Origin: a virus
Virus record (IMG/VR): IMGVR_UViG_3300030103_003222
Location: 18,762-82,761 of that record
Length of the DNA stretch: 64,000 bases
Strand: one strand, 5' to 3'
Below are positions 25,101-57,822 of the stretch, in pieces. The number at the start of each line of letters is the position of its first letter. The first letter of the stretch is position 1. The position numbers were made by a program, and so were the translations under genes. The notes beneath the pieces are model-generated. The model saw nothing but the letters and a program-made list of their open reading frames with translations. It was not told the origin of the DNA and did not search any database.

Positions 25101-28100
25101 AAACTTGGGCGACATACCCCTTCCCGAAGAAGGGACGCATCTATCTGAAGACGGGCGCCAGTGCAGAATACGCCAACAAAACGGGTGTCTCGTTCCACTT
25201 CGCCAACGCTTCAATCGGCAGTGGCACCTACGTCTTGTCCGATGGGCGCGAGGTGGCATCGTTCCACGAATGGGTCGTTGGCTCGGGCCTCATCCCTCAA
25301 GCATCTTCTCTGTCGGGCACGAACAGCGATGTCTACCCACTGGGCGAGGTCATCCTTGGCGACGGTCACTTCTTTGCTGAGAATGCCGCAGACGATGGCA
25401 CGACAGTCAACGACCGTATGTTCCAGTCCATGGATAACGTCACGCACGATTATCAGTTGGGCACGCAGTTTGCCAGCACCCGTGCGTTGGTGGAGATTCC
25501 GCTGTTCAACGCGCAGTTTTTTGAGAACGTGAGCGAGGGCGTTCTACCCGGTCCCGATAACTCGTTGAAACTCCACGTCGACCCGACCATGACGGCGCAC
25601 ACGTGGAATCCGTCACCAGTCGGTCGCCGCTTCCCTGAGAAGGCACCAAGCGACCGCTCCGCCCGTGGTGCCTACGCCTATGCTGCCGAGAACTCGGAGC
25701 AAGTGCGTGGTGCGACTATCATCCACAAAGCGGAGATTGTCAGCGGCAAATACCGACTATACGTCGACAAGCCGGAAATCTTCCCTGCAGCCGTCACGTC
25801 GGCAGGTGCGTTCTCTTACGTCACCAACGTCGTGCGCTACCGCCGTGCCTTCCTCAGCAACGGTGAGTGGGTTATCTATGAGAACGACCCGGCTGCGAAT
25901 GGTTTTCTCCGATTTGAGGACGAAGACTGGTCTACGTCTGAGAACTTCCTGCGCGACTACGAGGTAGGACACTCGCTGATGACGGCGGGCGGTTATGAGT
26001 CTGAAGCACTCGTGCCAATGGAGAGTGACATCCTCACCTCGTCCTCAGCCATGGAGCGGCGCAGCGAATATTACCACGACTCTGCAAGCGTCAAGACACA
26101 GGGTGGCAACGTCGATTACGGGCTACGCCAATACGTCAGCGCTGTTGAGTTCAAGGCCGGTCCAAAGTCAAACCCACACGCAAATCGAACGGTGGCTAAA
26201 CGTGCCAGTGGGACTGTGCTGTCGGTCACGCCGCTGGGCACAACGGCAAATTTCGGTGGCCTCGTTCTGCTGACGTTCTCCGAAGAGGACTTCGCAAAGT
26301 TCCCCAAGGTGCCCGTGCCTACCGACACGAACAATCTCATCACATTCACGACTGGCGACTACCACTACGAACTAACGGTGCCGTCGCCCGACGGTAGCAT
26401 TCGTCGCTTCATCTATTGGGGCAGTGCGGCGAACGTAGGATTGCGGTCATCCGACATGACGCCTGAAAATCTCGGCACGTCAATCGTTGTGCAGCCTGTT
26501 TTCACGGCATTGGCTGCGACGACACCAAACTACCTACTCGCAACATCAGCCGACTTCATCGCGGGTGAAAAGGCCACGCTCACCAAGCGTTCGTTTGACA
26601 TTGGCTTCAGCGTGAACCCAGTCGATGTTGCCTTAGAAACCACACTCAACATCAGCGACTCATTCCGACCGGGTGGCACAGGTGTTCGGAAATCATGGAC
26701 AGTCGCAAACGTCGCATCGACGAGCAGCATGACTGTGACTAACACCAGTTCGCTGTTCCTACAGTCCAACACCTTGGGGCTGACAGTGAAAGTCAACGAC
26801 TACCTCTACGCTGAAACCAACACCGGTAGCGCTGTGACCGTAGTGCGCTACCTTGGTCGAGTGACGGCGATTGCTGACTATTCGGCTTCATCCTCTCTAC
26901 CTCTCACCATCACGCTCGATGGCAGCATGACGTCAGCCACGCAATCCAACATCAACAGCGAGATTGCAGGTGGAAGCCTCACCATCCACCTCAGAGTCGG
27001 ATGTCACGACGTGATGAAGAATGACGATGAGGCTGTGCTCAACCGTCAGTGGCTGTCTCCATATGCGCAGGGTGGTCTGCGCCATGGGGACACCGTGTGG
27101 GCGAACATGACGTATAACAACCCGCACGCCGTAGAGGGTATGTTCGCCAAGAGCCGTGGTGTCTTCAACGAAGCCTTGGTGTGGACCGGCTTCAACGACG
27201 GCGACGGCTCTTTGACAACCAGCGCACGCACAAGCATTCCGCTTGAGAACTTCTTGATTGGTGACTCTTGCCTTGAGACAGCGCAGAATTATGCGCAGCA
27301 CGTCAACAAGACAATTGAACTGAACTACACCAATCTCGGCTTGTCGACCGACCTTGCACCCAAGGTCGCGTTTGTCGACCCTTACCTTGCCAACGAAGAG
27401 CACGCTCGGGTGTTGCTCTACGACGTGGCGCACGACCGAGAGTTCGTCGCTTTCCAAGACCTACACATGCAAGTGCAAACCAGCGCCAAAGTGGCAGAGA
27501 TTGGTTGGCAGCGCGAGTTCACAGCCACCAATATTGTTGACTCCAGCACGGAGATTGACCTTGTGCCTTATTCGATTGGCTTTAACGGAGCCAGTCAACA
27601 CGCCTTCCTGACGCAAATTGACGTTGCCGCTGGCTTCCTTTCGCAGAACAAATACGCACGCTCGACAATTCGTTCTCGCTTCATGGAGAGCGCCTATGCC
27701 CACGACATCGCGAATCACGTCGCAATATCGCTGCTCAACCCCATCGCAAGTGGGACTGCGCCGACAAACATCGTCCGTAGCCTGACCAACGTGACGCGTA
27801 TCGCTCAGTTTGGCAAGGCGCATGGACACTTTGTGCACACTGGCTACCACAAGGCAGGCCCATTCGGCAACCGCTCGCTTGGTGACAGCATTCTCCCACG
27901 CACCACAGATGGCTCTGCTATTCCGTATTGGGCTGACAAGATGCACACCTACACGCGCACGTCATTCAGCGACACGGGTAGTTTCTTGCTCAAACTACGT
28001 GAGCATCGAGAGAGCGTCACAGGTGCATCTTTCCGCGACCCATCCACTTTGTTCGATACACCCGATGGCACGCGAGTCGTGCCTGCATTCCTTGCTCTCA

Positions 28101-31100
28101 AGGGCATTCGCTCAGAGGCACTCAGCCTCACCACACATGACGAGGCTCGCTTGCAGCATCTGAAGCAGTGGACTGACATGGACTTTACGCGACGTTTGAC
28201 CATCGACCTTGGTGAAGTCGGTGCGCGTATTGGTGGGACAAGCATCCTCGCGGCTGCGAACGAGGTAGTGCGTCTCATCAATCAGGCCGGTGCAAAGCAA
28301 GGTCGCACACATGCACGTCGTCCATCCGAGCAATACCCCGGTGAATCAGAATCACTCGATTTGACTCGCGTTGGCGCTCGTGCTGCCGATGGCATACGTG
28401 ACCCAGCGTCCTCGCACATCAACGCCGATTTCGCAGCGACTGGTTCGACCCATGACCCTGCGGTATGGTGGGACGAAGACAAGGCGTTCGAGTCGCATGA
28501 CAAGGGCACACACATGGGCTATGTGCGCGCTCACATCGGACGTATCGTGCAGGACACCAACGGCAACGAAGGCTTCAGCATCGTTGTTCACAGCACAGTG
28601 CCCGGTGCGACTGGGCGAAACTTCTGTGTATGGCTCGACAACAGCAAAGGTCAATCGCGCTACACGCCGAAGTTCCTGATTGGTCACGGTGGACGTTATC
28701 GCACGTTCTGGTGCCAACCCGATGAACTCAGTGGAGAGAACATGCACCCCGCGCCGATGCCGCTTAATAAGCACGGTCGTCCGTTTGCACCAGTCACCAC
28801 CCTGCAAGGCTATGTTGTTCCTGACGACAGCGGTGTTGAGTTCAAAGCGAGCAGCGACTTTGCACCCCGTGGTGATGAAACCTCTGACCCAGTTATGCGC
28901 GCCGTCTCTATGGCCACTGGCTCAGGACAGTCGCATAACACAGTGAACACAGAATCACTGGAGGTCGAGGGCTTCAACACGTCCTACGTCACAGGTCTGC
29001 GCACGGGAACCAACGCGGTCGCTCGCGTCAATTTTGGCGGACTTGCCGCTTCCGGTGTTCCGGGCTTTGCTCCTGACGCCGGTAAGTGGGGTTTCGGTCG
29101 CAAGGGCGATGTGCGAATCGCTGAACGCTATGGTCCAGCCAAAGACACCAGTGCTTCATCGACTGCTGCAACGACCTATTCCAGTTATGTGCCCTCTACT
29201 GATGTGCGCGAAGAAGCCATCGGTAATGCACCGCTCTATGCTTTCCGTTTCATTGACCATCGTGGTGTCGGACACGGCATTCGCTTCATCTACCGTAGCA
29301 TGGGAGAGTCATTCGCTTTAGACGAAACACTATTGCCGTCAACGATTGATGATGAAATTGCAGTCTTCATTGACGACCGAGACGTTGGGCAAGGCGGCTT
29401 CACCATCGGCAAGCACATGCACGGTATTGGTGATGCTACGGGCCGTTTTGGCGCAGCGGGAACCAACACGTCGCTCATGTCGTGGAGGGGGAACCGTTGG
29501 AACCCCGTGCCTTCGCCAAGCGCCGCGTATGACTGCAACGCAGCCTACGATTCATCAAGCAACAAAATCACTGTCACGCTACAGGCTCCGTATAACGCGT
29601 GCCCTCATTTCGACGTCCTCGGCTACATGGGCTTCCCGCTAAGCCAAGGTTTGCTCCAACTCTCTGACCCGTTTGTGGATAGCAGCATGAACGGTAGCCA
29701 AGGCCACGTTTTTTCCTACACTCACCGCACACGAGAGGGAAGCAGCGGCACACACGTCTTCCACGGCATCCAAGGCTCGACATTTACACCGAGTCACACG
29801 CACTCAGGCGGCTCAGTTTCAGCAAACTCTTCGTCAGTGTTCGGAACTGGGAGCATCAACATTCGCGCACTCATTTCTTCGACGGTCAATTGGACGACGC
29901 TTGTGACCGACGAACTGCTTGCTGCCATCACAGCCGCAGCCATCAACCTTGCAGACCCTAACGTCGATGAGGGCGTGCCCTTTGACTGCCGCGACATGTT
30001 CGCTTCAGATGGGCGGACATTTGGTGAGTGGGGTGTGGCGGAGGACGCTATTCGCATTCGTGCGTTCAACACCGCTGGTGGCGGCATCCGACCCCTTTCG
30101 GACTTTTTTTCTGCGTCTCTGCATCGAGACTTTGCCATTCAGTCTGCTCACGTTGAGTTTGGTGACATTGAGGAAATCGAAGTCGACAATGGTGGCATTA
30201 GCCTCCCCAGCACTTCACGCGCTGCGACTGACGCCAGCATTGACAACGGTTTGAGGGCAGAGTGTGGGTATTTGCCATTCACCGTTCTGCAAGTCTTCAC
30301 CAAGAGCAAGGGTAGCAACAGCAATACAGCCTCACCAGTTCTCGTTGACTCTCGCAACAACCCGGTAGACCCTGACGAATGGCACCGTCGACTTATCGGC
30401 TACACTTTCACTGCAAACGCGGGGGACCATGTTCTACCGCGCGTCGACAACCCATCGGTCCTTCTATTGGCTGCCGAAGTGACCAGCGACCCAATTCAAC
30501 TGACCACGAATCAGGTGTGGCACTTTGCTCAACCTGCCGGTGAAGAAGGCACAAGCATCAGCAGCAAGACCAAGATTGCATCTTTTGGTAGTGTGAGCAA
30601 CCTGCATGTGCAGAATGGTGACGTCTTGGTGACAAGTCAAAACGGTGCCAACAGCAAGACGCATCTTTCACTGGTGACTGGCACGAAGACCTCAACTTTC
30701 CCTGCAAGTGACCCTGCCAGCAACGCTGTAGCGCAGCGCTTTGGTGACACTGCGCGAGCATTCCGCACTGCTGGGAGCCGCGTCTTGGGTAGCGTGTTCT
30801 CTCGTCCCATGCTCTTCTTCCGTGGTGGGCGCGACAGCATCGACCACTCAGTGCCACTGTTCTTCGGCGGTGGTTTCAGTGGCGTCACACTCGACATCAA
30901 CGACGGCACCAAGAACGACTACAGCGAGTTCTTCACTCATCCATACGCGGCTGGACCAACCGGTGTCGCTGGTGTGCAGCACGCCAACGAGTTCCTCTCG
31001 TCCTACTCAATGCTCGACTGCAACGCTATGATGGCGTTTTTCCCCGGCACCCCGCTTTTGAACCAACATCGCGGCAACATCAATCCGCCGTTCTTCAACT

Positions 31101-34100
31101 CTGAAAACATGCTAACGCCTGACCTGAAACGCGGCACGCAGGGGCATCACAGCGACTACCCTGCCCCGTATTCAAGCGGTGTTAAGGTCCAAGTGCCAAT
31201 TCCATTGGTGTTGCGTTTCGCACACCCCACTGCTCGATACAGCGACCACAGTGGGACCACAGATAGCAAAACCACCTACCTGATTTTCGGTCCCGGTCAA
31301 GCCTTCCCATTCACGGCTCAAACCGCTACCCCAGACAACAGCAGCGAACCACATCCCGGTCGTGCTTTGACTGTCGGCAACACATGGTCGAAGGTGCCAA
31401 CACACACCAGCGGTAAGCAGTTCCTGCACAACCACATTACCAATTCAACCGTCGGTTTCCTTCCCGAACTTCACTCCACGCAGGTCAACCGCTACCGGAC
31501 ACACTGGCGACAAACGATGAACTGGGAGCCTGCGCAGGGCAAGTCCAATGCCACGCGATTGTTTCAGCGTCCTGAGTCCGGCCGTTTCTATGGTGAGATG
31601 TTCACGTCAAACGGCGTGCTCAACAGCACCTCACTCGCTGACTACAGAACCGCTCATCCACTTCGGCATGCTGTGTTTATGGGATTCGGTATGGCCAGCA
31701 ATTCTGATTGGTGTTTCCACATGGACGGCGGTTATCACCCCGGTGGCTCGTGGTTGGACAATCAACTGACGTTCAATCCACCACACCCCAACGACAACAG
31801 CCGCGTAGCAAAAAGCGGCGTGGCTGGTAACGAACTACACCCAAGCGCATTCCGCGTAGCAGCGCCGTTGGCCAACCGGGTGCTCTACGGCTCATCTGCA
31901 TCTTTTGCCAGCGACACCATCGAGAGCGACGACGTCGAACTCGAATACATCGCTGTCGACGCCACGAAATGTCAGAATGGGGAGGAAATGGCTGCCCTGC
32001 TCGGCTCTGCCATCAACTCATTCCCCGGTGCTGGTGCACTGAAGGCTATGGGTGGGACGTTCCTACCCAGCATGGGGACCAGCAACCGGCAAGACCGCTA
32101 CGGTTGGGTCGAAGTCACGGGAGTTGTCGCCTATTTCCTCAGTGGAGAAGACACGGCTGCGAACGTCAAGACCAACGCCATCAAGGACAACTTCATGACG
32201 CTGGCCTTTTCCAGTCAGATTTTGGCTGAGCAAGTTCCTGAAAGCGGTTGGTTGCGAACAAGTGCCGACTTTGACAACGGGGTAGACAGCAACAGCGATT
32301 CTGCTGCTTTCGCACCCTATCACAGTCGAATCGTCAAACTTGACACGAGTTCGAGCCAATACCACGTCACCTTCTATCTCGGTAGCAATCGCATCGCTGG
32401 TTCAAAGGCCTTTGAGTCGCTTAAGACGTGGAAGGACTACCTCGACACAGGTGTTGCTGCAGGCAATGAGGTTGTTCCCAATGTAAGCAGTGCAACCAAG
32501 GTCTACGTGTGGACCAAAGCAGGTGTGCACCGATGGGACAACTCGGGTCGGCTTGAGGGCTATTCGCAAGTGCACTTCAGCGGCTTGGTCGACGCCATCG
32601 ACAGAACGCGGCCAGTTGGGCTACCGGGTTGGCACGGTGAACGCTATTCTTACCTGAACACGTTGGCCGTGTCCGGCGCGTATTCTGCCGGCCTTGGTGC
32701 ATGGCACCCATCCCTCGGCTTCTCTCCGTTCGGAGGTAGCATGGGTTGCGCGTCTGTGCTTGGTCACTTGCCTCACATCGCTCCCATGCCCAACAGTCCC
32801 GAAAGTGGTTTGCCCAACGACGGGAGCAACGGTGCTGCCGACTTCCCCGATGCCGACACACCCAATGGCCCGAACTATGACGCTGACGACGACGGCGACC
32901 AATCCTACAGCGCGAGTTTCGTTGACGGTAGTGGTAACAATAGCCCACCACTCACCACGTTTGACGAAAACGTGCACAAGGACTTACAGCACGCTCAAGG
33001 CGTATATGCCCGAGCCATGTTGGTCGTCGCTCACGAGTCAGAACTGGCTTTGGTGGCCAAGCGCGACCGTGACGGTATCAAGTGCGTTGGTGACTGGTTG
33101 CGCTCCAAAGATGCGAGCAGCATCACGTTGGCCGGCACAACACGTTGGGACGACCGGATTCACGGTCAGGACCGGTTTATCGCAACAGCAAACGCAGGTC
33201 CCAACATTGAGGCTCTCATCGTTGATGACACGGCTTTGCCAACGGTAAGCAGCCCTACAGCAGCCAGTGGTTTGGTGGCCTCACCGTTCAACGCTGAGTT
33301 CTTCTTGCACACGGCCGTTTCAGCAGACACTGAACTCGAAAATGCCGAGCCGTGCCGCAAACCAACTGGTGACTTGTTCCTCGACATTGACAAGAGCATC
33401 GGCTCTTTCTATTCCGCAAGCGCTGGCGCGCAGCGCAACATCATGGACCATTTCTATGAGGCAGGGAGCAACAACCCAATGGGTGGTTTGTGGGGCGGTA
33501 ATACGCAGAAAAACTCCTACTGGATGGGTGACGTCAACGGTTATGAGATGTTCAAGCGTTCGCCGGCCAAGAACTTCAGCATCGAGCACATCGTGTGGAA
33601 GCGCATGGACGGAGGTAGCCTGTCGCTACCCGCCATGAACGCGCGTGGGCTTGGTGCTGTGCCATGGGTCAGTCGCGTTGACGGTAGCAACGCCTACACG
33701 ACCGGTGAGAAATTGCTCGGTAACGTGCGCTTCTCGTTTGAGACGACGAACTCAGCGATGATGCCAATTATGCGAGCGCATGAACTCGGCCATCCTCAAT
33801 TGGCTGTTGACCCACCTGTCGAACTCCGTGATGTGTTGGAAATCCCCAACGAAGAAATGCAGTTTGACGACATGGTCGTTGTCGATGACACGGGACAATC
33901 GCATACGTTGAACGGTGGTTCACCGCTGGGTGTCGTCATTCGCGCCTTCCGCTCCAGCGGTGAACGACTCGCAAGTGGCCTCGCCCCATCTGTTGCAGGT
34001 GCTGGGCTTGAGCCAAACATGACCATCCGGCTACCCGACTCCAACGCGATTCCCGGCAACATTCTTGTTCGCAGTGGTTTTGACCGTGTGCAAGCCTATC

Positions 34101-37100
34101 AGACAGAAACCATGGGCGACGGGGGTATGATGAGCAACCCACAGGGCCTCGGTCAACTGTTTGATGGTTTGACTGGGCCGTTCGGCGCACCTGTGTTGTC
34201 TGAAGCAGGGTGGGAACACATCGACAAGGCAGGATTGGACAGCACCAGCAGCAAATGGGATGCAGCGACGAGCGACAAACCTCTGAGCAGCGCGTATGAA
34301 CTTCACGACCGCACTCTGTTTTTCCACGTCACGAAGATGGGACACAGTCACACCGACCGCTACCCAACGACCTACACGCACAGCGGAGGTCTGCAAAATC
34401 AAGCGCTAACGGTGTCTTCGTATGCGAGCAGCACTGCGATTTTGACCGCGTCCGCATCAATCACGACTGCGATTTTTGACGCCGACTTCGCCACGAAGGA
34501 AGTCATGGACGAAGGGTCGGGTAAGCGACGTAGGTTCCTACGTCTCGCCACCGCAACAGACAGCGTCGTCGTTTCCTACACAGGCATCAGTGGGGCTACG
34601 TTCACAGGAGTGGTTGGTGACATTGACTTCGACCAGTTCTTGCTCGACAACCCACCCGCTTCGTCCACCATCAACGTCACTCCGTCCTATTACGTGCCTG
34701 CTGGTAGCACCCGTTTCTTTGCAGCACGACGTTTGCGTGACCACGCGGAGGTCAGCGGTAACAGCCCCGACATGGCGCACACGCACTACTTGAACGGGAA
34801 CGCTGACACGACAGGCTATGCCCGCTATAGCGTGCCGCGTATGACCCCCATGCCCTACCCACGTATGGGCCACCATTTCGTCAACGCCACCATGCCGATG
34901 CTACCCGGACACTGGGCACACCCTGCCTATCAGGGCCTCTATTCAGGACATGAAGCGGAGCGACGTGCAACGTTGCGCGACCCTGACTACATTCGTCTGT
35001 TGGACCATACCGACCTTGACGACGCCACCTTCGACAGCAACGTCTCAGACTACCTCCACCCCCTCAATCCGCAAATCCGCATTGGGAGTCTGACCGCTAC
35101 ACCAAGCGGACCCAGCGATATTCACGGTGGTGCCTTCACTTTGATGTTTGAGACGAAGGTGCGCTTCGACGGCTACGGTGTTCTTGCCTCAAAGGGCACG
35201 GCAGGGGACATGAACAAGTTAGGAGGTCACTCGATTGTGTTGGAGGCTGGTGGAAACTACACGCAAGACGGTCACTTCCCTGACCCCGCTGAGGTCGGTG
35301 CCTACCAGATTGTCATTCAACCCAATCTACACGAGACACAGATTGCTGGTTTCCATCACAACAACAGCACGACTACCGCTTTGCCAAACGGTAGCAAGCG
35401 TGCGCTCACAGCCCAGCAGATTCACCTCGTGGTCGGTATCAAATATGACAGTGAGCGAGGTGGCTCGCCCATTGGTGGAGCAACGCTAATTCTTGCCGAG
35501 GCGACGTTGGCTGACGTGAGAGGTTGTGAAATCTTCGTGAATGAGGTCATCCTCGACCACGACCCCGACCACGGTAGTCACTTCACAAACATCCCACCGA
35601 TGCTGCTCTATAACCCACTGGGTGTGCAGGGCAGCGAATCCCCGACATTCACACGTCGAACTCAACCGTATCATCCGGGCATGTTTGAGGACAGCACGCC
35701 CGGACACACGCTAAACATCCCGTGGTGGAGCATTTTCCACAAAGTGGCACCTGACGACTCCTCGTCTACCGGTTTCAGGCATTTGGCGCTTTATCGCATT
35801 GACAACTTCTACCAGTTCTGCCGAGCGTCATCGGGCGCAGTGGCAGCACAACTGACGCTGGCTGGCTATCCCTCCATCAGTCCCGACATCTATTCTGACG
35901 TGATGGCTAACGTCTCACTCAGTCCTAAGTGCACCGTTACCGGTAGCGGCTCGGGCTACATCGAGGTTGACGATGCGTCGTTCTTCCCGAACAAACCAGC
36001 CTATGGGGAGCGTCTGCACTACGTTGACGCAAGTGGGAATGACAAGTTCATCACCTACACTCAACGTAGCGGCACGACGGCGAATGCGGCGACGATGAAC
36101 CAACCTGACCGCTTCGTCACCAGTGCAAGTTCACCCGGTGACGGAACGGTTCTGCGGTTGACGCGACCTTACAGTGAGCGCATGACCGACACGCTGTTCA
36201 CTCATTCCAAGAGCAGTGTGTTGACGCGCATCATGCCGCAAATGTTGCCGGGTTCACGCGACACGAACAGCCTCTATACGGCTGACGCGTTCTTGTGCAT
36301 GTGGCACCACAACCTCGGTCGTCCTCACACGTTCTATTCCGACAGTCCGAGGACATGGGGTGGCACAACAACAGACCGCGCTATCAACAAAGCAGCGTAT
36401 AACGGCATGCCCGAGCACTTCGAGACTGTCCATTACCACGCGGTGAACTACGCGGCAAGCCATGGCCCGTTCCATCTTGACTTCAAGACGCCCAAACCCG
36501 CGCAGCACTTGTCAGGCACCTTCAGTTCGGTCAGCGGTTCACCCTCTACACTGGTGTTTGGTGCAGACGTTTCAGGCGACGGTTTGGTCGGTAAGGTGCT
36601 GTTCACCGATGGGCGAGTCATTGGAACGGTTGCATCTGTTTCAACCACCGACGTCACGTTGACCGGTGACATCCTCTACACCCCCGCTGCTTCAACGACC
36701 GTCTACGTCGGTGCAGATGGTTCGGTTGACACGGCGGCCAACATTCACGCCATGACCGGTTATCAGGCTCAGGGTGGCACTTCAACGATGCTGACTCATT
36801 ACTGGCCGTGCGGTAGTCGAGGTGGGCCGCTGGTCAGCCGACTCGACGGCTATGCGGCTTGGGCTGCCGGGTGGCATGTGCCTCGCCAATATTCATCCGG
36901 TGGCGGTAAGCACTGGGTCGATGATGACGACAGCGGCTCATATTCTGTTTCAAGCGGCTTGAGTGACGGCTCGTTGGTTGCGTCTCGCACCTATCCGTTT
37001 GGCTATCGCTTTGGCCTACGCCAACCGTGGAATCGACCGCAGTGGGGCTTCTACGGTATGCGTGCACATCGTGAGGAGGGCCTGTTCAGTGGCTCACCAG

Positions 37101-38953
37101 CCAACGCCAATTATGCTGTGGGTAATGGCACTGGACCATTGGTCGCGTATGAGACTCAGACGTTGATTGCGAAGGGTGGAAGCAACAGCGACCAAACGCT
37201 GAAGCCGACATACGCCGGTATCATGGAGCGACAGACCAACTTCAGTGCCATGCTCGGTCCCGACAAGGCTGAGTGGCAGGTTCGCTACAGTGACGGTCGC
37301 CGCATGACTCGCTCATTCGGTTGCCCTGTGCGCACCATTCGCAACGGTAGCGGCGCTCCGCGCGATTGGTGGGGTGACAGTGCCGGTTTGGGCATCTCCA
37401 CGATTGATGCTGCTGTCGGGTATTACCTCGTTGACTGGTGGGGCAACACGCGTGGTGAAGACATTCGACGTGCCCCGGTGCGAGGCTTTGGTATTCGCCC
37501 AGCATGGGACGCGGGTGATGCGTATGAGTATGACCGCACCAACGGCCGCACGCCCTACGCTCGGCTCTATAACAACGGCAAACCGATTGTCAACCTCAAG
37601 GGTATTGCTGACAGCAGCGGTGACGTGCTGAGCAGTCCTACCGCCGTCGTGCCTCGCTTTGGCGGTCGAGTCAACAACACCAACAACAAAAGCACAACAA
37701 CGCTGGTTGACGTTTTCGCTCCCACCAACGCACTACGCGTGGGTGATATGGGTGGTGGTCGTGGTGTCCGTTATCCAACGCAGTTTAACGAAGACGTGCT
37801 GGTCGAAATCAGCGACGTGTATCAAGCGTCAGGTGTTGTCTTGTCAGGTAACACTGCTGAGCCTGCCTTTGGTCAAGGACTCATCCGTCCGCTTGACAGC
37901 GTGGTGCAACCTGACGAAATCAAGCGCGGCATCAGCCGTCGTCTTGGTGTTGACGAGGATGGTTTGCTGAAACCCGATGCCGTCGTCAGCGACCGAGTCG
38001 AAAGCGTCACTGGCACCAGCGTCCACAAGGATGCGGTGTCGCGCTCATCTCCTCGCATCGGTATTGACGGTGAGACGACTGAATCGCTGTTCAACGGTGT
38101 TTCGACAGACATGGTCGCCATTAACAGCGAAGCCCACAGCCTACACACTGACCTCGGCGTGGGGCAGCGAATTGTGCTTGAAGGCGGTATGCAGGCTGGC
38201 TCACAGACGCTTGGCGACTATGACCTGACGGCTCTGTCCTTCGCTGGTCAACCGCATGGTGGTGTCATGCGATTTACGCACACAAGCAACATCAAACCAA
38301 GTGGCGGCACCTATGTCCTTGAGTCGCGCTCTTTCGCTGCGCCGTTTGATGACACAGGATGGGGACGCTCAGGCTCCGGTAGCACCAGCAACCCGTTCCA
38401 AACCACAACTGCGACGTCTGCTCCGCACAACCTGACAGCCACCAAGGTCACGTTCATGCTGCGCCCAGTTCGACTGCTTGACAACCAACACGTTGCTGTC
38501 TTCCGTAGTCCACGTAATCTCGGCGGCTCGACACCTCAAGACGGCGGCACGGCTTACGGCGCGACTGCGGGTGGAAAATATGGTCTGTTCACGTATGAGG
38601 CGACGGACGCGACATCAACGAACTACGTGCGCACGACCATGCCTGACGGTGACGCTCCGTATCACCCGGTCTACTTGATGGAGAGTAGTAGCGACACGGT
38701 GCCTGTCTCCAAGGGTCCGAAACTACCGGGCACTGCTGTCGCTGGTTTTGACAGCGACTCGCTCAAGAGCGTGGTCACACGACTCGTTGTCAGTGAGAAC
38801 ACGCTACAGCACTTCCGTAGCGACGCACCTCGTCGCAGCCTTTCCAAGAAGGACTTCTCAGTCAAGCCTCGGTTCAGTCAATCGTTGCACAGCAAGGGGC
38901 ATAAAGGAGATGTGGACTACGGTGCATCAGACCACAGCGGTGACGCATCATGA
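22112..38953 (+). CDS. Giant (5613 aa) tail/baseplate protein with an N-terminal LamG/concanavalin-like domain
   Basis: 'ALLFDGVTDSV', 'FAIEAWVTP', 'HLVAG...VVLFVNG' and 'FIGGHGGQFRGIIESLHIS' indicate LamG. The ORF is an uninterrupted 16.8 kb and S/T/G-rich. GAGGTGA RBS. Confidence 0.85.
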   Translation: MPIMLQSNHALLFDGVTDSVIIPQGRNSRVGEKSEQGDIVSTNLLGEDLSGERGQGLIGDLFDRGFAIEAWVTPDCGGRVVQKDGQFLLSVGDVDTPGPAVFELNVVSDVGLEKVILRTAVETTAGYDGTVYPVNTFGGVDDAFNRFNSDDDGTALTLSQRPLLHLVAGVREGKVVLFVNGVLMASQELSQEFVLNSSNEPVFIGGHGGQFRGIIESLHISSAFSDEMTTRSAPLVSSRTACLMRFEEPISPISGTYTFSSIGSSSGLSTLNIGTTTAASLASALTGKTQTSGTVDFTKTPYSTGDYSVVDFTTSPGTKRTHLVPHVPFNLLINPGAVKRSTMKPNQSPPERVRLLSIDLGAGTALVSSVHLDFVNSTHDSRDVPSLHDGLRPVLHSRSSATGDDYFVVITGDSLIENGSGRPYQPPHFSTQIVDRTGQMVLDEGHFEQHGIVYSDRMATTASDSDNPFAVTWPSTLDASFQVGHSGRHTLNHVQGHHYLRQMADPQEEILDQRIDAADVLTLIYDAASKGIDKQFPMNSRVDYYRELGTLPLLTVVSSSTAYEEVDNGLTGASRDLIAIGGLSGGLRFDPSPFFLKGPVPEDYANVDAELRKHHLRPSATSRIAVLEVSGLSSYGMSPYVEIHYNAIDLTGASMGKTAPMLMVEKTIPAANTLLSGSTYVLDVIETALSSGATLHAPGGVISFGAPSDSAMSQFFASNTLMGDNSEGFESDDELDERFTPQNYSTIVANQPRKPPQNIAASHTTATHESQFNRLVIQQIDAPTETFTNRRAVHTDHTSPSNGQFDVGRTASASNVHEMFDIIDNHAVLSPNVKARYFVQPSNRTRTRQLTYARGAFTRPDDFNVAKVMLLMSPMRLRSVAEDESDEGSRATIVRCVGMNADAMTRDVSEIGSGSPNSHVVKEIEPNAPVVTVTLGGVGQGAYDTKPTFDPSPMARLPYSTRRGYSVYATSARVDLSASPQNFLNVVALNNDTDDLKTWATYPFPKKGRIYLKTGASAEYANKTGVSFHFANASIGSGTYVLSDGREVASFHEWVVGSGLIPQASSLSGTNSDVYPLGEVILGDGHFFAENAADDGTTVNDRMFQSMDNVTHDYQLGTQFASTRALVEIPLFNAQFFENVSEGVLPGPDNSLKLHVDPTMTAHTWNPSPVGRRFPEKAPSDRSARGAYAYAAENSEQVRGATIIHKAEIVSGKYRLYVDKPEIFPAAVTSAGAFSYVTNVVRYRRAFLSNGEWVIYENDPAANGFLRFEDEDWSTSENFLRDYEVGHSLMTAGGYESEALVPMESDILTSSSAMERRSEYYHDSASVKTQGGNVDYGLRQYVSAVEFKAGPKSNPHANRTVAKRASGTVLSVTPLGTTANFGGLVLLTFSEEDFAKFPKVPVPTDTNNLITFTTGDYHYELTVPSPDGSIRRFIYWGSAANVGLRSSDMTPENLGTSIVVQPVFTALAATTPNYLLATSADFIAGEKATLTKRSFDIGFSVNPVDVALETTLNISDSFRPGGTGVRKSWTVANVASTSSMTVTNTSSLFLQSNTLGLTVKVNDYLYAETNTGSAVTVVRYLGRVTAIADYSASSSLPLTITLDGSMTSATQSNINSEIAGGSLTIHLRVGCHDVMKNDDEAVLNRQWLSPYAQGGLRHGDTVWANMTYNNPHAVEGMFAKSRGVFNEALVWTGFNDGDGSLTTSARTSIPLENFLIGDSCLETAQNYAQHVNKTIELNYTNLGLSTDLAPKVAFVDPYLANEEHARVLLYDVAHDREFVAFQDLHMQVQTSAKVAEIGWQREFTATNIVDSSTEIDLVPYSIGFNGASQHAFLTQIDVAAGFLSQNKYARSTIRSRFMESAYAHDIANHVAISLLNPIASGTAPTNIVRSLTNVTRIAQFGKAHGHFVHTGYHKAGPFGNRSLGDSILPRTTDGSAIPYWADKMHTYTRTSFSDTGSFLLKLREHRESVTGASFRDPSTLFDTPDGTRVVPAFLALKGIRSEALSLTTHDEARLQHLKQWTDMDFTRRLTIDLGEVGARIGGTSILAAANEVVRLINQAGAKQGRTHARRPSEQYPGESESLDLTRVGARAADGIRDPASSHINADFAATGSTHDPAVWWDEDKAFESHDKGTHMGYVRAHIGRIVQDTNGNEGFSIVVHSTVPGATGRNFCVWLDNSKGQSRYTPKFLIGHGGRYRTFWCQPDELSGENMHPAPMPLNKHGRPFAPVTTLQGYVVPDDSGVEFKASSDFAPRGDETSDPVMRAVSMATGSGQSHNTVNTESLEVEGFNTSYVTGLRTGTNAVARVNFGGLAASGVPGFAPDAGKWGFGRKGDVRIAERYGPAKDTSASSTAATTYSSYVPSTDVREEAIGNAPLYAFRFIDHRGVGHGIRFIYRSMGESFALDETLLPSTIDDEIAVFIDDRDVGQGGFTIGKHMHGIGDATGRFGAAGTNTSLMSWRGNRWNPVPSPSAAYDCNAAYDSSSNKITVTLQAPYNACPHFDVLGYMGFPLSQGLLQLSDPFVDSSMNGSQGHVFSYTHRTREGSSGTHVFHGIQGSTFTPSHTHSGGSVSANSSSVFGTGSINIRALISSTVNWTTLVTDELLAAITAAAINLADPNVDEGVPFDCRDMFASDGRTFGEWGVAEDAIRIRAFNTAGGGIRPLSDFFSASLHRDFAIQSAHVEFGDIEEIEVDNGGISLPSTSRAATDASIDNGLRAECGYLPFTVLQVFTKSKGSNSNTASPVLVDSRNNPVDPDEWHRRLIGYTFTANAGDHVLPRVDNPSVLLLAAEVTSDPIQLTTNQVWHFAQPAGEEGTSISSKTKIASFGSVSNLHVQNGDVLVTSQNGANSKTHLSLVTGTKTSTFPASDPASNAVAQRFGDTARAFRTAGSRVLGSVFSRPMLFFRGGRDSIDHSVPLFFGGGFSGVTLDINDGTKNDYSEFFTHPYAAGPTGVAGVQHANEFLSSYSMLDCNAMMAFFPGTPLLNQHRGNINPPFFNSENMLTPDLKRGTQGHHSDYPAPYSSGVKVQVPIPLVLRFAHPTARYSDHSGTTDSKTTYLIFGPGQAFPFTAQTATPDNSSEPHPGRALTVGNTWSKVPTHTSGKQFLHNHITNSTVGFLPELHSTQVNRYRTHWRQTMNWEPAQGKSNATRLFQRPESGRFYGEMFTSNGVLNSTSLADYRTAHPLRHAVFMGFGMASNSDWCFHMDGGYHPGGSWLDNQLTFNPPHPNDNSRVAKSGVAGNELHPSAFRVAAPLANRVLYGSSASFASDTIESDDVELEYIAVDATKCQNGEEMAALLGSAINSFPGAGALKAMGGTFLPSMGTSNRQDRYGWVEVTGVVAYFLSGEDTAANVKTNAIKDNFMTLAFSSQILAEQVPESGWLRTSADFDNGVDSNSDSAAFAPYHSRIVKLDTSSSQYHVTFYLGSNRIAGSKAFESLKTWKDYLDTGVAAGNEVVPNVSSATKVYVWTKAGVHRWDNSGRLEGYSQVHFSGLVDAIDRTRPVGLPGWHGERYSYLNTLAVSGAYSAGLGAWHPSLGFSPFGGSMGCASVLGHLPHIAPMPNSPESGLPNDGSNGAADFPDADTPNGPNYDADDDGDQSYSASFVDGSGNNSPPLTTFDENVHKDLQHAQGVYARAMLVVAHESELALVAKRDRDGIKCVGDWLRSKDASSITLAGTTRWDDRIHGQDRFIATANAGPNIEALIVDDTALPTVSSPTAASGLVASPFNAEFFLHTAVSADTELENAEPCRKPTGDLFLDIDKSIGSFYSASAGAQRNIMDHFYEAGSNNPMGGLWGGNTQKNSYWMGDVNGYEMFKRSPAKNFSIEHIVWKRMDGGSLSLPAMNARGLGAVPWVSRVDGSNAYTTGEKLLGNVRFSFETTNSAMMPIMRAHELGHPQLAVDPPVELRDVLEIPNEEMQFDDMVVVDDTGQSHTLNGGSPLGVVIRAFRSSGERLASGLAPSVAGAGLEPNMTIRLPDSNAIPGNILVRSGFDRVQAYQTETMGDGGMMSNPQGLGQLFDGLTGPFGAPVLSEAGWEHIDKAGLDSTSSKWDAATSDKPLSSAYELHDRTLFFHVTKMGHSHTDRYPTTYTHSGGLQNQALTVSSYASSTAILTASASITTAIFDADFATKEVMDEGSGKRRRFLRLATATDSVVVSYTGISGATFTGVVGDIDFDQFLLDNPPASSTINVTPSYYVPAGSTRFFAARRLRDHAEVSGNSPDMAHTHYLNGNADTTGYARYSVPRMTPMPYPRMGHHFVNATMPMLPGHWAHPAYQGLYSGHEAERRATLRDPDYIRLLDHTDLDDATFDSNVSDYLHPLNPQIRIGSLTATPSGPSDIHGGAFTLMFETKVRFDGYGVLASKGTAGDMNKLGGHSIVLEAGGNYTQDGHFPDPAEVGAYQIVIQPNLHETQIAGFHHNNSTTTALPNGSKRALTAQQIHLVVGIKYDSERGGSPIGGATLILAEATLADVRGCEIFVNEVILDHDPDHGSHFTNIPPMLLYNPLGVQGSESPTFTRRTQPYHPGMFEDSTPGHTLNIPWWSIFHKVAPDDSSSTGFRHLALYRIDNFYQFCRASSGAVAAQLTLAGYPSISPDIYSDVMANVSLSPKCTVTGSGSGYIEVDDASFFPNKPAYGERLHYVDASGNDKFITYTQRSGTTANAATMNQPDRFVTSASSPGDGTVLRLTRPYSERMTDTLFTHSKSSVLTRIMPQMLPGSRDTNSLYTADAFLCMWHHNLGRPHTFYSDSPRTWGGTTTDRAINKAAYNGMPEHFETVHYHAVNYAASHGPFHLDFKTPKPAQHLSGTFSSVSGSPSTLVFGADVSGDGLVGKVLFTDGRVIGTVASVSTTDVTLTGDILYTPAASTTVYVGADGSVDTAANIHAMTGYQAQGGTSTMLTHYWPCGSRGGPLVSRLDGYAAWAAGWHVPRQYSSGGGKHWVDDDDSGSYSVSSGLSDGSLVASRTYPFGYRFGLRQPWNRPQWGFYGMRAHREEGLFSGSPANANYAVGNGTGPLVAYETQTLIAKGGSNSDQTLKPTYAGIMERQTNFSAMLGPDKAEWQVRYSDGRRMTRSFGCPVRTIRNGSGAPRDWWGDSAGLGISTIDAAVGYYLVDWWGNTRGEDIRRAPVRGFGIRPAWDAGDAYEYDRTNGRTPYARLYNNGKPIVNLKGIADSSGDVLSSPTAVVPRFGGRVNNTNNKSTTTLVDVFAPTNALRVGDMGGGRGVRYPTQFNEDVLVEISDVYQASGVVLSGNTAEPAFGQGLIRPLDSVVQPDEIKRGISRRLGVDEDGLLKPDAVVSDRVESVTGTSVHKDAVSRSSPRIGIDGETTESLFNGVSTDMVAINSEAHSLHTDLGVGQRIVLEGGMQAGSQTLGDYDLTALSFAGQPHGGVMRFTHTSNIKPSGGTYVLESRSFAAPFDDTGWGRSGSGSTSNPFQTTTATSAPHNLTATKVTFMLRPVRLLDNQHVAVFRSPRNLGGSTPQDGGTAYGATAGGKYGLFTYEATDATSTNYVRTTMPDGDAPYHPVYLMESSSDTVPVSKGPKLPGTAVAGFDSDSLKSVVTRLVVSENTLQHFRSDAPRRSLSKKDFSVKPRFSQSLHSKGHKGDVDYGASDHSGDAS

Positions 38954-45688: not shown

Positions 45689-47200
45689 TCAACCTTCCTT
45701 GCGACCGATGATGTCGTCAATGCGCAGCATAGCGGTCGTGACCTCTGTTGCGGTCGTGATAGCGCTGCGGACGAGCGTTTCAGGCTCGTAGACGCGCCAC
45801 TTAGCCATGTGAACGATACCGCCGTTGTGCACGTCAGGACCGTAGCCATAGCCTTCGTGACGCATGGCGAGAACAGTGTCCAAACCTGAGTGTCCGGCGT
45901 TCTCAGCGATGGTGCTGGGAATGATTTCCAGCGCGTCAGCGAAAGCGTCAATCGCCATCTGTCCTCGCCCACCGACCTCCGATGCACGGGAGCGTAGACG
46001 AGAAGCCAGTTCAAGGTAGGCGGTGCCGCCGCCGTAGCAGAGCCTGTCGCCGTTATGAATGAGCGAGACGACACCGAGGGCATCATCGAAGCCACGTTGC
46101 ACCTCATCAAGTGTGGACTGTGTCGCACCAAACAGCACGAGTGTGGCCTCACTGGAGGCGATGTCGCTGGCCACGAAGAGGTAGTCCACGTCGTTATACC
46201 GGCGGCGGTCAACGACCGCTCTGCTAACGTCCATACCGTCCTCGGCCATATGGTAGGGCTTGGAGCCGAACTCATTTCCGAGGCGCTTCATGGTGCTCTC
46301 AGGCACGCGCCTGACGACGAAGATGTTGCGCTTTCGCAGGTATTGCACGACCGTGTCGTGCACACCGTCGCGCACGAACACGATGTTGGGCTGCGCTGCT
46401 TCGATGCGCTGCGCGGCCTCCAGCAAATGCTCGCGGCCTGCATTCTTCACCGCGCCGTATGACGTAGCATCGACCTGCACCTGCACGTTTCCGTCTTGCT
46501 TCTGCTCTTCCAACCCGCTGTTGATGAGCAGAGCGGACAGCGATTCGGTGTCCGTGAATTGACCGTCAGTAGTGACCACGTCTTTGTTGATGACGACGCC
46601 CTCAAACAGATAGGAGTCTTGCAGTGAGCCACCGGGAGCGGCCAGCACGCGCACGTCCTTGACATCACCAACGGCTTCAATCGTCTTGACGCAGAGTTCA
46701 GCCACAGCGTCTGTAGCAGCCTCCAACGACTTGCCCGTAATCGCCGTGCTTGCGATGTCCGTAAGTCGGGGAGAGTCAGTGCGTTTGCTACCTTTGCCGG
46801 AAACGTCGGGGAGCGTCTCCAATTCAGGAAGTTCCTCCAACACCATGCGCAGTGCGTCGCTGTAGCCACGTCCGATGATGTTGGGGTGTAGGCCCTTGTC
46901 GAAAAGCGTCTCTGCGTTGCTGAGCAACTGTCCTGCGAGCACCACACTGCTGGTCGTGCCGTCGTAGCAGTTCGTCTCCTGCACCTTGGCTACTTCAACC
47001 AGCATCTTCGCAGCCGGGTGAGCGCTATCGAGTTCGCGTAGAATGGTCGCACCGTCGTTCGTGACGATGACGTTGCCGCCACCGTCAACCATCATCTTGT
47101 CCATACCCATCGGACCAAGCGTGGTCTTCACGGTCGCGACAACGCGCTTCGCTGCCTCGATGTTCAGTCGCTGTGCCTTGTGATTCGTGTTCTCTGTCAT
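45689..47200 (-). CDS. Group II chaperonin (thermosome subunit)
   Basis: 'VKTTLGPMGMDKM', 'VTNDGATIL', 'HPAAKML', 'DGTTSSVVLAG', 'FADALEIIP..IAENAG' and 'LRIDDII'. Confidence 0.97.
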   Translation of the reverse strand: MTENTNHKAQRLNIEAAKRVVATVKTTLGPMGMDKMMVDGGGNVIVTNDGATILRELDSAHPAAKMLVEVAKVQETNCYDGTTSSVVLAGQLLSNAETLFDKGLHPNIIGRGYSDALRMVLEELPELETLPDVSGKGSKRTDSPRLTDIASTAITGKSLEAATDAVAELCVKTIEAVGDVKDVRVLAAPGGSLQDSYLFEGVVINKDVVTTDGQFTDTESLSALLINSGLEEQKQDGNVQVQVDATSYGAVKNAGREHLLEAAQRIEAAQPNIVFVRDGVHDTVVQYLRKRNIFVVRRVPESTMKRLGNEFGSKPYHMAEDGMDVSRAVVDRRRYNDVDYLFVASDIASSEATLVLFGATQSTLDEVQRGFDDALGVVSLIHNGDRLCYGGGTAYLELASRLRSRASEVGGRGQMAIDAFADALEIIPSTIAENAGHSGLDTVLAMRHEGYGYGPDVHNGGIVHMAKWRVYEPETLVRSAITTATEVTTAMLRIDDIIGRKEG

Positions 47201-55681: not shown

Positions 55682-56446
55682 TCACGCCCGTTGGTCCACG
55701 ACAATGAGCGTAGCCTCTCCGCTGTCCCATGACTGCATGAGAATCAACGGCGCTGACTCGCCCACGCTGAACTTGGCCTGACTGGGATTGAGCAGGGGTA
55801 GTGTCTCGATGAACCACGCTCCGTAGTTCGCCTTGACCTTGTCACCCACAGCGTCGCTTACCGGCGTCGAGGCGAAATAGCGTGCCTCGTGTGCCTTGCC
55901 TGCGCGGATGACGAACTCCTTCTCGGAAGGGTTGACCGTCACCTCAAACACAGGGCTGCTGTCGAGAATGCCACTCATGGCCTTGACAGACATGAGGTCG
56001 CTCAAATCCACTGAGCCGGACGTGGACACGTCCTTGTTGGCGAACGTCGTCTGCTTGGAGTCAACGTAGGCTTGGAACATCTTGCCGACGATGGATGCAC
56101 GCGATGCACTGGTGATTGATGTCGAGGTAGGGAACTGCACCTTGGACCGGCCGGCGATGACGAACAACGTCTTGCCTGAGCCTGTCTGTTTCAGCGTCAC
56201 GAACTCACTCTTGCAGCGCTTGATGAACTGCCGTGTCTTGTCCAAGTCGCTGATGTAGAACGTCCCGGTGTCCTCCTTGCCCTCATAGGGGATGAGTCCC
56301 TTCCGACGTAGGTAATACGTCTGAAACGCGACCTCAGCCTCCATGACTCCGCCCGCACTCAGCGTGACCAGTAGGTCTTCAGCGACTGCGCCGAAGGACG
56401 ACAGGAATGCGTTTAGTGCCTTCGCGTTGAACTTCATGCTCGGCAT
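55682..56446 (-). CDS. Putative sliding clamp (PCNA-like)
   Basis: 254 aa with a two-domain beta-alpha-beta pattern, adjacent to polB. A clamp loader is present in the same arm. Sequence motifs are weak. Confidence 0.6.
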   Translation of the reverse strand: MPSMKFNAKALNAFLSSFGAVAEDLLVTLSAGGVMEAEVAFQTYYLRRKGLIPYEGKEDTGTFYISDLDKTRQFIKRCKSEFVTLKQTGSGKTLFVIAGRSKVQFPTSTSITSASRASIVGKMFQAYVDSKQTTFANKDVSTSGSVDLSDLMSVKAMSGILDSSPVFEVTVNPSEKEFVIRAGKAHEARYFASTPVSDAVGDKVKANYGAWFIETLPLLNPSQAKFSVGESAPLILMQSWDSGEATLIVVDQRA

Positions 56447-56670: not shown

Positions 56671-56689
56671 CTTTCTCTCTCCTTGATGG

Positions 56690-56820
56690 TGCACAGGTGG
56701 GGGGACGCGCAGGAAGAAGAAACGAACCTCCCCTGCAACCTGTAACCACAGCCCTTGGAATAGCCGTGGTGAGGTGAAACCCTTCGCGCGTCTTTACTCC
56801 GCAGACCCCCATGTTGTGCA
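56690..56820 (-). ncRNA. Candidate structured RNA / cis-regulatory element (multi-stem, four-way junction)
   Basis: Nested complementary segments TGCACA/TGTGCA, TGGGGG/CCCCCA and GACGC/GCGTC enclose three hairpins. G-U pairs work only on the minus strand. One hairpin has UUCG at its apex. Confidence 0.6.
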
Positions 56821-57822
56821 TCACAGCGAGCCGTCGTAGAGTTCGGGCAACCCGAACCACTGCGGCTCCTTTCCTGCCTCCGTGATGAGTGTAGTGCGGC
56901 GCTGTCCCTGCAGTTTCGCATTGGTCTTGCTCTTGTCGAACGTGACCTGATATTCGCTGCGGATGACTTCGCCTGTCTCTTCGTCCTTCTCGTCCTTGCG
57001 CTCACAGCGCAGAATCTGATACACGTAGTTGTTGGATGACTTCTCGTAGTCGGGACGCCACTGTGGTGCAGTGTCCTCGCTCTTGCCGAAGGAGTAGTTC
57101 GTCAAGCGCAGGTGCGTCTCCCAAAAGACACGCACACCGGCCTTGACCAGCCCACGACAAATCGCCGTCAGTTGGTGGAAGCGAGTCTTGCGGATGGCCC
57201 AGTCCCACTGGTGGCCCACCTTCTTGTTCCAGTCAGCGGCCTCGATGCCGTCCTTGGCGATGTTGAGGTCAACGATGCGCATGCAGTTCACACACACGCT
57301 GTCCCACAAGTCGATGCCTGTGATGTGGACACCCCACAGACGAGGACCGTCATAGTCGGGGTTGCGTTGATTCTGAGCGCACTCCAGTGCGAACTGCCCA
57401 AGGCTCATCAGACGTTCGTGTGTGAGCGGGTAGTCGTAGGCTGTGCGGTCCTTCTTCATCATGACCCAAGGCTCCCACACACGAATGCTCTGCTGCGAGG
57501 AGTGGAAGGCCGACTTGTTGGCGGCGAGGCCACCGTCGAAGTCAAAGCCCCACAGTTCCATCTTCCTCTCTTGCTCGGTGCGCTCAGGTGCTTGAAGCCA
57601 CTTGCCGTAGGCGTCTGTGACCACAGCCGTCTTCCCGGTGTTGTCGTGCCCAGCGAGCACACAGAACGTGTGCGTCTGCGGCATGTGGTCCATCGTGGTC
57701 AGTTCTTGCCGAAGGTCTGCGAAGGGGTCAGCGTTCTCACGCTTGTGAGGAGGTGTCTCCTCAATCTCCTTCTGCTCCTTCTGCTCCTTCTCTGCTTGCT
57801 TCGTCTTTCCAAATCCTGCCAT
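56821..57822 (-). CDS. P-loop ATPase (AAA_24 / Sak4-like recombination ATPase)
   Basis: Walker A 'AGHDNTGKT', 'GFDFDGG' and 'VFWETH', with RecA-like C-terminal strands. Located near the SSB-like gene. Confidence 0.7.
   Translation of the reverse strand: MAGFGKTKQAEKEQKEQKEIEETPPHKRENADPFADLRQELTTMDHMPQTHTFCVLAGHDNTGKTAVVTDAYGKWLQAPERTEQERKMELWGFDFDGGLAANKSAFHSSQQSIRVWEPWVMMKKDRTAYDYPLTHERLMSLGQFALECAQNQRNPDYDGPRLWGVHITGIDLWDSVCVNCMRIVDLNIAKDGIEAADWNKKVGHQWDWAIRKTRFHQLTAICRGLVKAGVRVFWETHLRLTNYSFGKSEDTAPQWRPDYEKSSNNYVYQILRCERKDEKDEETGEVIRSEYQVTFDKSKTNAKLQGQRRTTLITEAGKEPQWFGLPELYDGSL

Follow-up and report, generated by a model that had tools for sequence, protein, structure and literature searches.

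A conserved pseudoknotted RNA beside the sliding clamp gene in tailed viruses resembling magroviruses

What is encoded in the 131 bases, 56820 to 56690 on the minus strand, that separate two genes in the replication arm of a viral genome fragment of 64,000 nucleotides (nts; here called the window, positions 18,762 to 82,761 of IMG/VR record IMGVR_UViG_3300030103_003222)? An original prediction, made from the letters of the window, considered this the largest intergenic gap of the arm, which agrees with the lists of open reading frames (ORFs) in a comparison that was not exhaustive, and drew in it a multi-stem RNA reaching from the upstream stop to shortly before the next ATG. The boundaries hold: the RNA begins one base past the TGA (56823-56821) of an ORF of 333 amino acids (aa) and ends 19 nts ahead of ATG 56670. 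The interval is shown here to encode a conserved RNA of ~110–170 nts, with five helices and a pseudoknot, whose function is probably control of replication-gene expression.

Folding of the window sequence alone is suggestive only, being just modestly better than that of shuffled sequences. With the minus strand, RNAfold agreed with the earlier drawing in its outer helices, its bulge on the 5′ side, its junction helix and two hairpins out of three, at a minimum free energy of −55.0 kcal/mol (z −2.56), a value that 3 of 200 dinucleotide shuffles equalled; the plus strand of the same interval has a z of −2.08. For 16 relatives folded singly, z ranges from +1.18 to −3.48, and such independent folds give the same architecture in most of 16 members. 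What is decisive for the RNA being real, as judged from the aligned sequences of homologous loci, is covariation. The architecture to which it applies is closed by helix P1, followed by P2, a G5:C5 helix with a CC bulge. Then come the 5′ strand of the pseudoknot, an A-rich linker and P3, which closes a junction holding P4, the 3′ strand of the pseudoknot and P5. In the order of the transcript, the parts in the window are:

56815..56820, minus strand: 5′ strand of P1, UGCACA, one base after the upstream stop, pairing with UGUGCA
56806..56811, minus strand: 5′ strand of P2, UGGGGG, its G5 run nearly invariant, partner CCCCCA at 56703-56698
56805-56793, minus strand: the 13-nt 5′ bulge of the earlier drawing, equal to the pseudoknot 5′ strand plus the linker
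56801..56805, minus strand: 5′ strand of the pseudoknot, UCUGC, immediately 3′ of P2, partner GCAGG at 56736-56732
56793..56800, minus strand: purine/A-rich linker GGAGUAAA between the pseudoknot 5′ strand and P3 (AAUAAAAA in most relatives), its unpaired A-run conserved in the alignments
56786..56792, minus strand: 5′ strand of P3, GACGCGC, by which the GACGC/GCGUC of the drawing lengthens to the 7-bp GACGCGC/GCGCGUC
56771..56785, minus strand: joint J3/4, starting GAAGGGU (family consensus RAAGYRU) and containing a small unconserved hairpin
56745..56770, minus strand: variable hairpin P4, ACCACGGC/GCUGUGGU with loop UAUUCCAAGG, 8 bp with one G-U, strands 56770-56763 and 56752-56745
56732..56736, minus strand: 3′ strand of the pseudoknot, GCAGG, sharing the first two bases of P5 as modelled
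56711..56733, minus strand: hairpin P5, GGGGAGG, loop UUCGUUUCU, UCUUCCU, the loop being rich in U, with a G-U that is conserved and, on the 3′ side, a pyrimidine arm whose sequence is complementary to the downstream ribosome binding site (RBS)
56704..56710, minus strand: 3′ strand of P3, GCGCGUC, joined directly on either side to the 3′ strands of P5 and P2
56696..56703, minus strand: 3′ strand of P2, CCCCCA, then the invariant CC bulge at 56697-56696 (consensus UuCCCCCnCCu)
56690..56695, minus strand: 3′ strand of P1, UGUGCA, pairing with the P1 5′ strand

The outer helices thus lie where they were first drawn, and two of the three hairpins then proposed belong to the family architecture, namely the 8-bp hairpin (P4) and the last, G-rich/pyrimidine-rich one (P5), while AGG-GUUUCA-CCU is not kept in relatives. 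Comparison with homologues assigns the supposed lower part of the last hairpin, GCAGG, to the pseudoknot instead, as the 3′ strand that pairs with UCUGC of the ‘bulge’. P4 varies widely in length and sequence and some relatives have no P4. The loop UUCGNUU in P5 is found in some lineages only.

Conventional alignment was of little use. MAFFT followed by RNAalifold on 10 members recovered only P2 because the helices were misaligned, and R1, a covariance model built from one sequence and a structure drawn by hand, was therefore used, together with its refined successor (R2). The alignments assessed for covariation are in consequence ones fitted to a model. With 39 distinct sequences, 92.4% of the pair cells are standard pairs as against 69.2% in shuffles (0 of 500 shuffles did as well), 252 cells are changed on both sides as against 89.8, and slid partners pair in at most 59%. 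With 51 distinct sequences, from both of the viral lineages described below, 91.2% of cells are paired (67.0% in shuffles), 334 cells are changed on both sides (117 in shuffles; 0/500) and the slid controls reach at most 60%. All four pairs of P1 have changes on both sides, as do six of the seven in P3, where 98.9% of cells are paired with the 39 sequences and 93.8% with the 51. Five of the seven P5 pairs covary and its G-U is retained in 47 of 51 sequences. P2 is nearly constant, each of its pairs being G-C in 46–51 of the 51, with compensatory GGGAG/CUCCC, and GGUGGGG/CCCCGCC in lineage 2. In strength this covariation at the homologous loci of relatives goes well past what the window’s own folding offered, and it bears out the proposal of a multi-stem RNA on the minus strand.

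The same alignment speaks to the strand. Among 938 cells, 101 are G-U or U-G and 15 are A-C or C-A, and therefore the folded strand is the mRNA-sense strand, as the original prediction had supposed from the wobble pairs. That prediction had also raised the alternative of an origin element formed by DNA secondary structure, and a cruciform or an inverted repeat bound by a protein would be further readings at the DNA level. The inverted G5 and C5 runs around an A/T-rich stretch, and the location in a replication module, would suit such an element; the strand-asymmetric wobbles, the covarying pseudoknot and the lack of a GC-skew extremum or turning point at the site (56.7 kb) all oppose it, and it is highly improbable. 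Nor does the element contain a conserved ORF: frames from the conserved AUG end after a median of 20 codons, and after 3 codons in several members, and element lengths fall 22/17/12 into the three classes modulo 3, without bias to multiples of three.

The ‘bulge’ of the first drawing turned out to be half of a long-range helix. An initial idea that it pairs with the P5 loop was dropped when a systematic duplex search put its partner just 5′ of P5. The first 5–8 bases of the bulge, directly after P2, are complementary to that partner in members whose sequences differ: UCUGC/GCAGG in the window and, in others, UUUGGGAGUAA/UUGUUCCCAAG, UUGGCA/UGCCAG, UUUGCAC/GUGUAAA, UGGUAG/CUACCA and UUUGCCCG/CGGGCGGG. 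A test independent of any alignment, on 30 distinct sequences, gave a mean duplex energy of −6.49 kcal/mol for cognate strands as against −3.99 ± 0.36 kcal/mol for permuted ones (0 of 20000 permutations), and 0/20000 was again the result with one sequence for each of the 21 distinct cores. Neither a segment further upstream (z +2.0) nor the reversed bulge (1156/20000) gave a signal in the same test. In a third model, in which the pseudoknot replaces P3 and whose fitted alignment has 43 rows, one of them a spurious minus-strand match, each of the seven pseudoknot pairs has changes in both partners, and pairing is found in 87.5% of cells. P3 and the pseudoknot have no bases in common and therefore can coexist; if they do, the order of strands is pseudoknot 5′, A-rich linker, P3 5′, P4, pseudoknot 3′, P5, P3 3′.

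That order has a counterpart. Ribozymes of the hepatitis delta virus (HDV) type have a nested double pseudoknot in which the strands run helix A 5′, helix B 5′, hairpin, helix A 3′, hairpin, helix B 3′, and for small ribozymes an inter-ORF setting in viruses is typical. Might the RNA then be a self-cleaving ribozyme of a new class, severing the polycistronic transcript between its two cistrons? The two share their strand order, a wobble pair at the foot of the first helix and an occurrence in compact viral genomes, and the present RNA has strongly conserved bases in its junctions and a conserved G-U. However, the likeness is one of fold topology and the details diverge. Where the catalytic C would be expected, in a joint from the last hairpin to the P3 3′ strand, most of the 28 members parsed have 0 nts; the first hairpin varies in size and is not a fixed 3-bp P3 with an L3 loop; the wobble has U-G in place of G-U; P1 and P2 are present as additional closing helices; and no ribozyme model in Rfam matches either the window (E ≤ 10) or the family loci (E ≤ 1). 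A ribozyme of this sort would seem distinctly unlikely.

The wider search for known relatives was equally negative, in keeping with the earlier suggestion of a novel RNA. The 4227 models of Rfam 15, run on the window at E ≤ 10, gave as best scores 15.5, 15.2 and 14.6 bits against gathering thresholds of 65.3, 47 and 44, and there were no matches at E ≤ 1 in eight family loci (49,230 bases). The second of those scores belongs to the tRNA-Sec model; ARAGORN finds no tRNA gene in the window, and the early remark that the element does not look like a tRNA is borne out. The first, with an insignificant E of 0.67, is CcsR1 (RF02791), with which the RNA shares the display of C/U-rich, CCUCC-like tracts in hairpins, though architecture and host are different. 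The RNA thus matches no known family. A full-text literature search, with supplements outside its reach, found no description of such an RNA: PMC11706807 and PMC10160649, on magroviruses or viruses of Poseidoniales, do not mention non-coding, ncRNA, riboswitch, secondary structure or intergenic, and the available portion of PMC5434244 has no mention of non-coding or intergenic elements.

How widespread is it? Model R1 recovers all 28 of the expected distinct members and has exactly one match in the window (56686-56823, minus strand). By R2 the members score 54.9–113.8 bits and the window 80 bits (E 5e-19), while decoys selected by pattern score up to ~21 bits, and nothing besides expected members exceeds ~25 bits with the covariance models. 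Pattern scans of viral contigs and metagenomes gave additional members, including the same RNA in a second gene context, and dozens of further viral and metagenomic contigs are matched by the covariance model. Of the metagenome pattern matches 23 of 24 score at least 48 bits. Among the decoys of the pattern scans, L044, L067 and L076 score ~21 bits by the model and L040, L057 and L060 have no model match, with L054 and L065 being rejected by eye only. A pattern scan of 185,579 species genomes found 24 sites of which one (L097, 105.7 bits) is genuine, the remaining 23 comprising 13 at ≤ 25 bits and 10 without a match at E ≤ 1. L097 is a 30-kb contig in a metagenome-assembled genome labelled Parvibaculum, and there too the RNA has the same two neighbours, the ATPase-like gene and the clamp gene; this is probably viral DNA mis-binned with the bacterium. 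Blastn against the ‘phages’ collection found no match for the window or for either lineage.

Each genome searched has a single copy. There is one match in the window’s own record of 82.8 kb and one in each of eight related virus records, of which five are ≥ 95% complete and the other three partial (26–43%). At two loci (L022:3985-4123 and L023:4003-4137) the same position is taken by a differently built element, in which GGAGAAAAGG/CCUUUUCUCU forms a P2-like helix and GCGGG/CCCGC a second one; R2 matches neither of these unconfirmed relatives, nor is there any model match in the record that includes L022. The element may be a divergent homologue.

The position of the RNA with respect to genes is as constrained as its fold. 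The neighbours in the window are:

56821..57822, minus strand: the 333-aa ORF, with Walker-A-like GHDNTGKT, whose stop codon abuts P1
56668..56684, minus strand: the RBS AAGGAGAG (56684-56677) and ATG (56670-56668) of a 74-aa Zn-ribbon-like ORF, directly downstream of the RNA
55682..56446, minus strand: a 254-aa sliding clamp with the PCNA fold, encoded by the second gene downstream of the RNA

The upstream gene had been called an ATPase. The Walker-A-like motif can indeed be read in its translation, but searches give no usable match (none in PHROGs and, in Pfam, just a sub-threshold PF02234 at 17.6 bits with a cut-off of 25). The 74-aa ORF has CxxC. The identity of the clamp comes from structure prediction (AlphaFold2 pLDDT 90.5; Foldseek to archaeal PCNAs E 1e-12, TM 0.64–0.69).

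The 333-aa protein retrieves 38 viral loci, with 59–100% identity, which form lineage 1. After its gene a homologous element is present in 24 of the 38, two have the differently built one (L022, L023) and 12 have no spacer; in these 12 the stop of the 333-aa gene overlaps or abuts the start of the next gene, which is the clamp gene. At L007:4110-4255 an extra spacer of ~140 nts, possibly a short ORF, lies between RNA and clamp gene. In lineage 2 the RNA follows a 272-aa gene whose product also has a predicted sliding-clamp fold (pLDDT 91.8, E 1e-10 to 1e-11). The two clamp families have no sequence relation by BLASTP or by profile comparison with hhalign (probability 0.2), and a PDB sequence search with both gave nothing significant; only the predicted folds agree. 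Of 80 loci for the second clamp, 46 have a model match on the same strand, and the RNA starts mostly 2–8 nts past the clamp stop, with a few overlapping the end of the tblastn match and a few ~300 nts off. In the relatives that lack it the clamp stop overlaps or abuts the next gene, for a 107-aa protein. Small Cys-rich, Zn-ribbon-like ORFs follow the lineage-2 clamp gene at the RNA-less L185, L187, L190, L204 and L208. The RNA therefore adjoins a clamp gene upstream in lineage 1 and downstream in lineage 2, and the constant features are that it is single copy, inside the replication operon, beside the clamp gene, and exactly between a stop and the next RBS, where it replaces a coupled gene junction. 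The idea of an operator for clamp/polB was thus right about the link, a PCNA-fold gene adjoining the RNA in both lineages, and too narrow in that the RNA is not always upstream of the clamp.

Both lineages bearing the RNA are tailed viruses whose gene content matches that of magroviruses of marine group II archaea. The window encodes a portal, an S78 protease, an SU10-like capsid protein, an ERCC4 nuclease, PolB and a clamp loader, and resembles a magrovirus by this content; its replication arm starts with a Cpn60/TCP-1 chaperonin gene (45692-47200, minus strand, E 2e-114). The magrovirus gene set described in PMC5434244, chaperonin included, agrees with it. The replication block of a lineage-2 contig likewise has a clamp loader, a GroEL-like chaperonin, methyltransferases and PolB. 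The structural arm of the window includes two giant ORFs, one of 5613 aa (22112-38953, plus strand) and one of 1933 aa (3892-9693, plus strand).

Does an element that is constant beside the clamp gene on whichever side act in trans? It could be a stand-alone non-coding RNA gene residing in the operon, trans-acting or scaffolding proteins, and might bind a replisome or host factor or serve as a decoy through its CCUCC or UCACCUC tracts. Being single copy in every genome searched and next to the clamp gene regardless of side would accord with this, and the sequence-invariant G5:C5 helix with its CC bulge suggests specific recognition. In lineage 2 a YCCUCC is displayed in a loop or joint; it is conserved, resembles an anti-Shine-Dalgarno sequence and lies between P3 and the pseudoknot 3′ strand (e.g. 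L129:3319-3443, L140:3334-3441 and L150:2358-2471). In both lineages that joint begins RAAGYRU. Against an independent gene is the way in which P1 is squeezed between the stop codon and the Shine Dalgarno sequence, as for an element living on mRNA. Nor did a separate promoter or terminator come to light, although no scan aimed at such signals was made, and a stand-alone role is rather unlikely.

The tentatively favoured reading is of a cis-acting gate within the polycistronic mRNA, through which translation downstream would depend on the fold. While the RNA is compact and pseudoknotted, pyrimidine tracts would be locked in helices and the downstream RBS would be free. Two tracts are concerned: one consists of the end of the P5 loop and the adjoining 3′ arm (UCACCUC in many members, UUUCUUCUU in the window), the other of the P2 3′ strand and the CC bulge (CCCCCACCU). 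If the fold is lost, be it for want of a bound protein or ligand or through ribosomes arriving from the upstream ORF, these tracts would pair with the host-type RBS GAGGUGAU and close it. One U of P5 would then alternate between a G partner within P5 and the A of GAGG in the RBS, with which retention of the G-U in 47 of the 51 P5 helices fits.

Predicted folds are in line with this gate. In the full-length fold of the window the RBS is unpaired with P 0.91–1.0, and when the 5′ arm of P5 is blocked, UUUCUUCUU with AAGGAGAGA pairs nine RBS bases, at −13.4 as against −12.0 kcal/mol. The same alternative helix, with 7–8 RBS bases, is predicted in L009, L005, L029, L004, L086, L016 and L140 with energies near or better than that of P5. 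The 3′ strand of P1 is directly before the Shine Dalgarno sequence in many members, or overlaps it. The structural part of the generic description of a riboswitch, a conserved and covarying aptamer 5′ of the regulated gene, fits the RNA.

Two well-characterized types of regulator offer partial parallels for such a gate. The replication operators of T4-type phages comprise the leader pseudoknot of gene 32, the hairpin operator of gene 43 and the RegA sites. Like them, the RNA would be a cis-element in the PolB/clamp/clamp-loader cluster of a tailed virus, just 5′ of an RBS. However, every one of the T4 elements is either a simple hairpin or a small pseudoknot and is bound by a known protein, and here the fold is knotted with five helices, in lineage 2 it is 3′ of the clamp gene, and there is no similarity in sequence or model. 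Riboswitch aptamers of the preQ1-II type control access to the Shine Dalgarno sequence through an H-type pseudoknot with an embedded hairpin. They share with the present RNA a closing helix by the Shine Dalgarno sequence, a pseudoknot with a hairpin in its loop, conserved junction bases and pyrimidine tracts that pair with the Shine Dalgarno sequence. They differ in that no Rfam model matches here, that the neighbours are replication proteins and not metabolic genes indicative of a ligand, and that the host domain is archaeal.

Several considerations weigh against a translational gate. The genes downstream differ: in lineage 1 the RNA precedes PCNA or a Zn-ribbon ORF, in lineage 2 a 107–112-aa protein followed by methyltransferases. 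The spacing from P1 to the Shine Dalgarno sequence varies from 0 to ~60 nts. Complementarity to a Shine Dalgarno sequence is cheap for any C/U-rich strand, and the pairing has no clear covariation beyond one event (the window group as against the rest), in RBS sequences that vary too little for a covariation test. Two members (L014 and L015) have no such complementarity, and in many others the site pairs with the P2 3′ strand, with other bases, or more weakly than P5 does. A ribosome ending translation of the upstream ORF must unwind P1 and P2, and therefore the fold cannot persist on a heavily translated message. The fold is more complex than simple gating of a Shine Dalgarno sequence requires. 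The effector of such a gate could be a protein, a ligand or ribosome traffic.

A further consideration is the nature of the RNA data, which consist of contigs from which neither ends nor levels can be read. Parts of the window occur in only three public runs, each time in contigs, and contigs cannot show ends, strand or level. In metatranscriptome X1 a contig of 196 nts (56683-56878) comprises the element and 58 nts of the upstream ORF and has one difference, the same as in the L001 variant; it ends 7 nts past P1, with the neighbouring coding sequence uncovered, and the uncovered flanks in X1 and in X2 are uninformative. This contig is compatible with transcription of the element. The third run, X3, has a related virus with several small insertions within the P5 region (56716-56761 of the window), which fit a variable size of the P5 loop.

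The extent of the X1 contig, over the element and 58 nts upstream but stopping 7 nts after P1, could also be taken to favour an mRNA processing or stability element, whose knotted fold blocks exonucleases or marks an endonuclease site and in that way sets the relative amounts of the two halves of the operon at the clamp boundary. That the RNA occupies the same kind of cistron boundary in two gene contexts would accord with this, and nuclease-resistant pseudoknotted RNAs are known from RNA viruses (PMC11702639). However, contigs show neither ends nor levels and the parts uncovered prove nothing; simple hairpins are usually enough for 3′ protection. For an element of this kind we know of no archaeal precedent, and such a role is possible but doubtful. 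A departure from all established types is also conceivable, though not strongly expected: the RNA could found a functional class of its own that is native to archaeal viruses, either a ribozyme with the HDV topology and a different chemistry or a switch that senses a ligand or protein.

An RNA that is backed by covariation, pseudoknotted, single copy and fixed beside the clamp gene in two lineages would represent a rare structured-RNA family of archaeal viruses. For RNA structural biology the interest lies in an HDV-like topology that lacks the catalytic joint of HDV. Magroviruses and their uncultured marine group II hosts are abundant in surface oceans (as stated in PMC5434244), and the RNA offers a tractable experimental handle on this uncultured virus–host system. 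A sensing switch at this site, if that is what the RNA is, would make the production of replisome parts, the clamp and PolB, depend on how the marine group II cell fares under infection.
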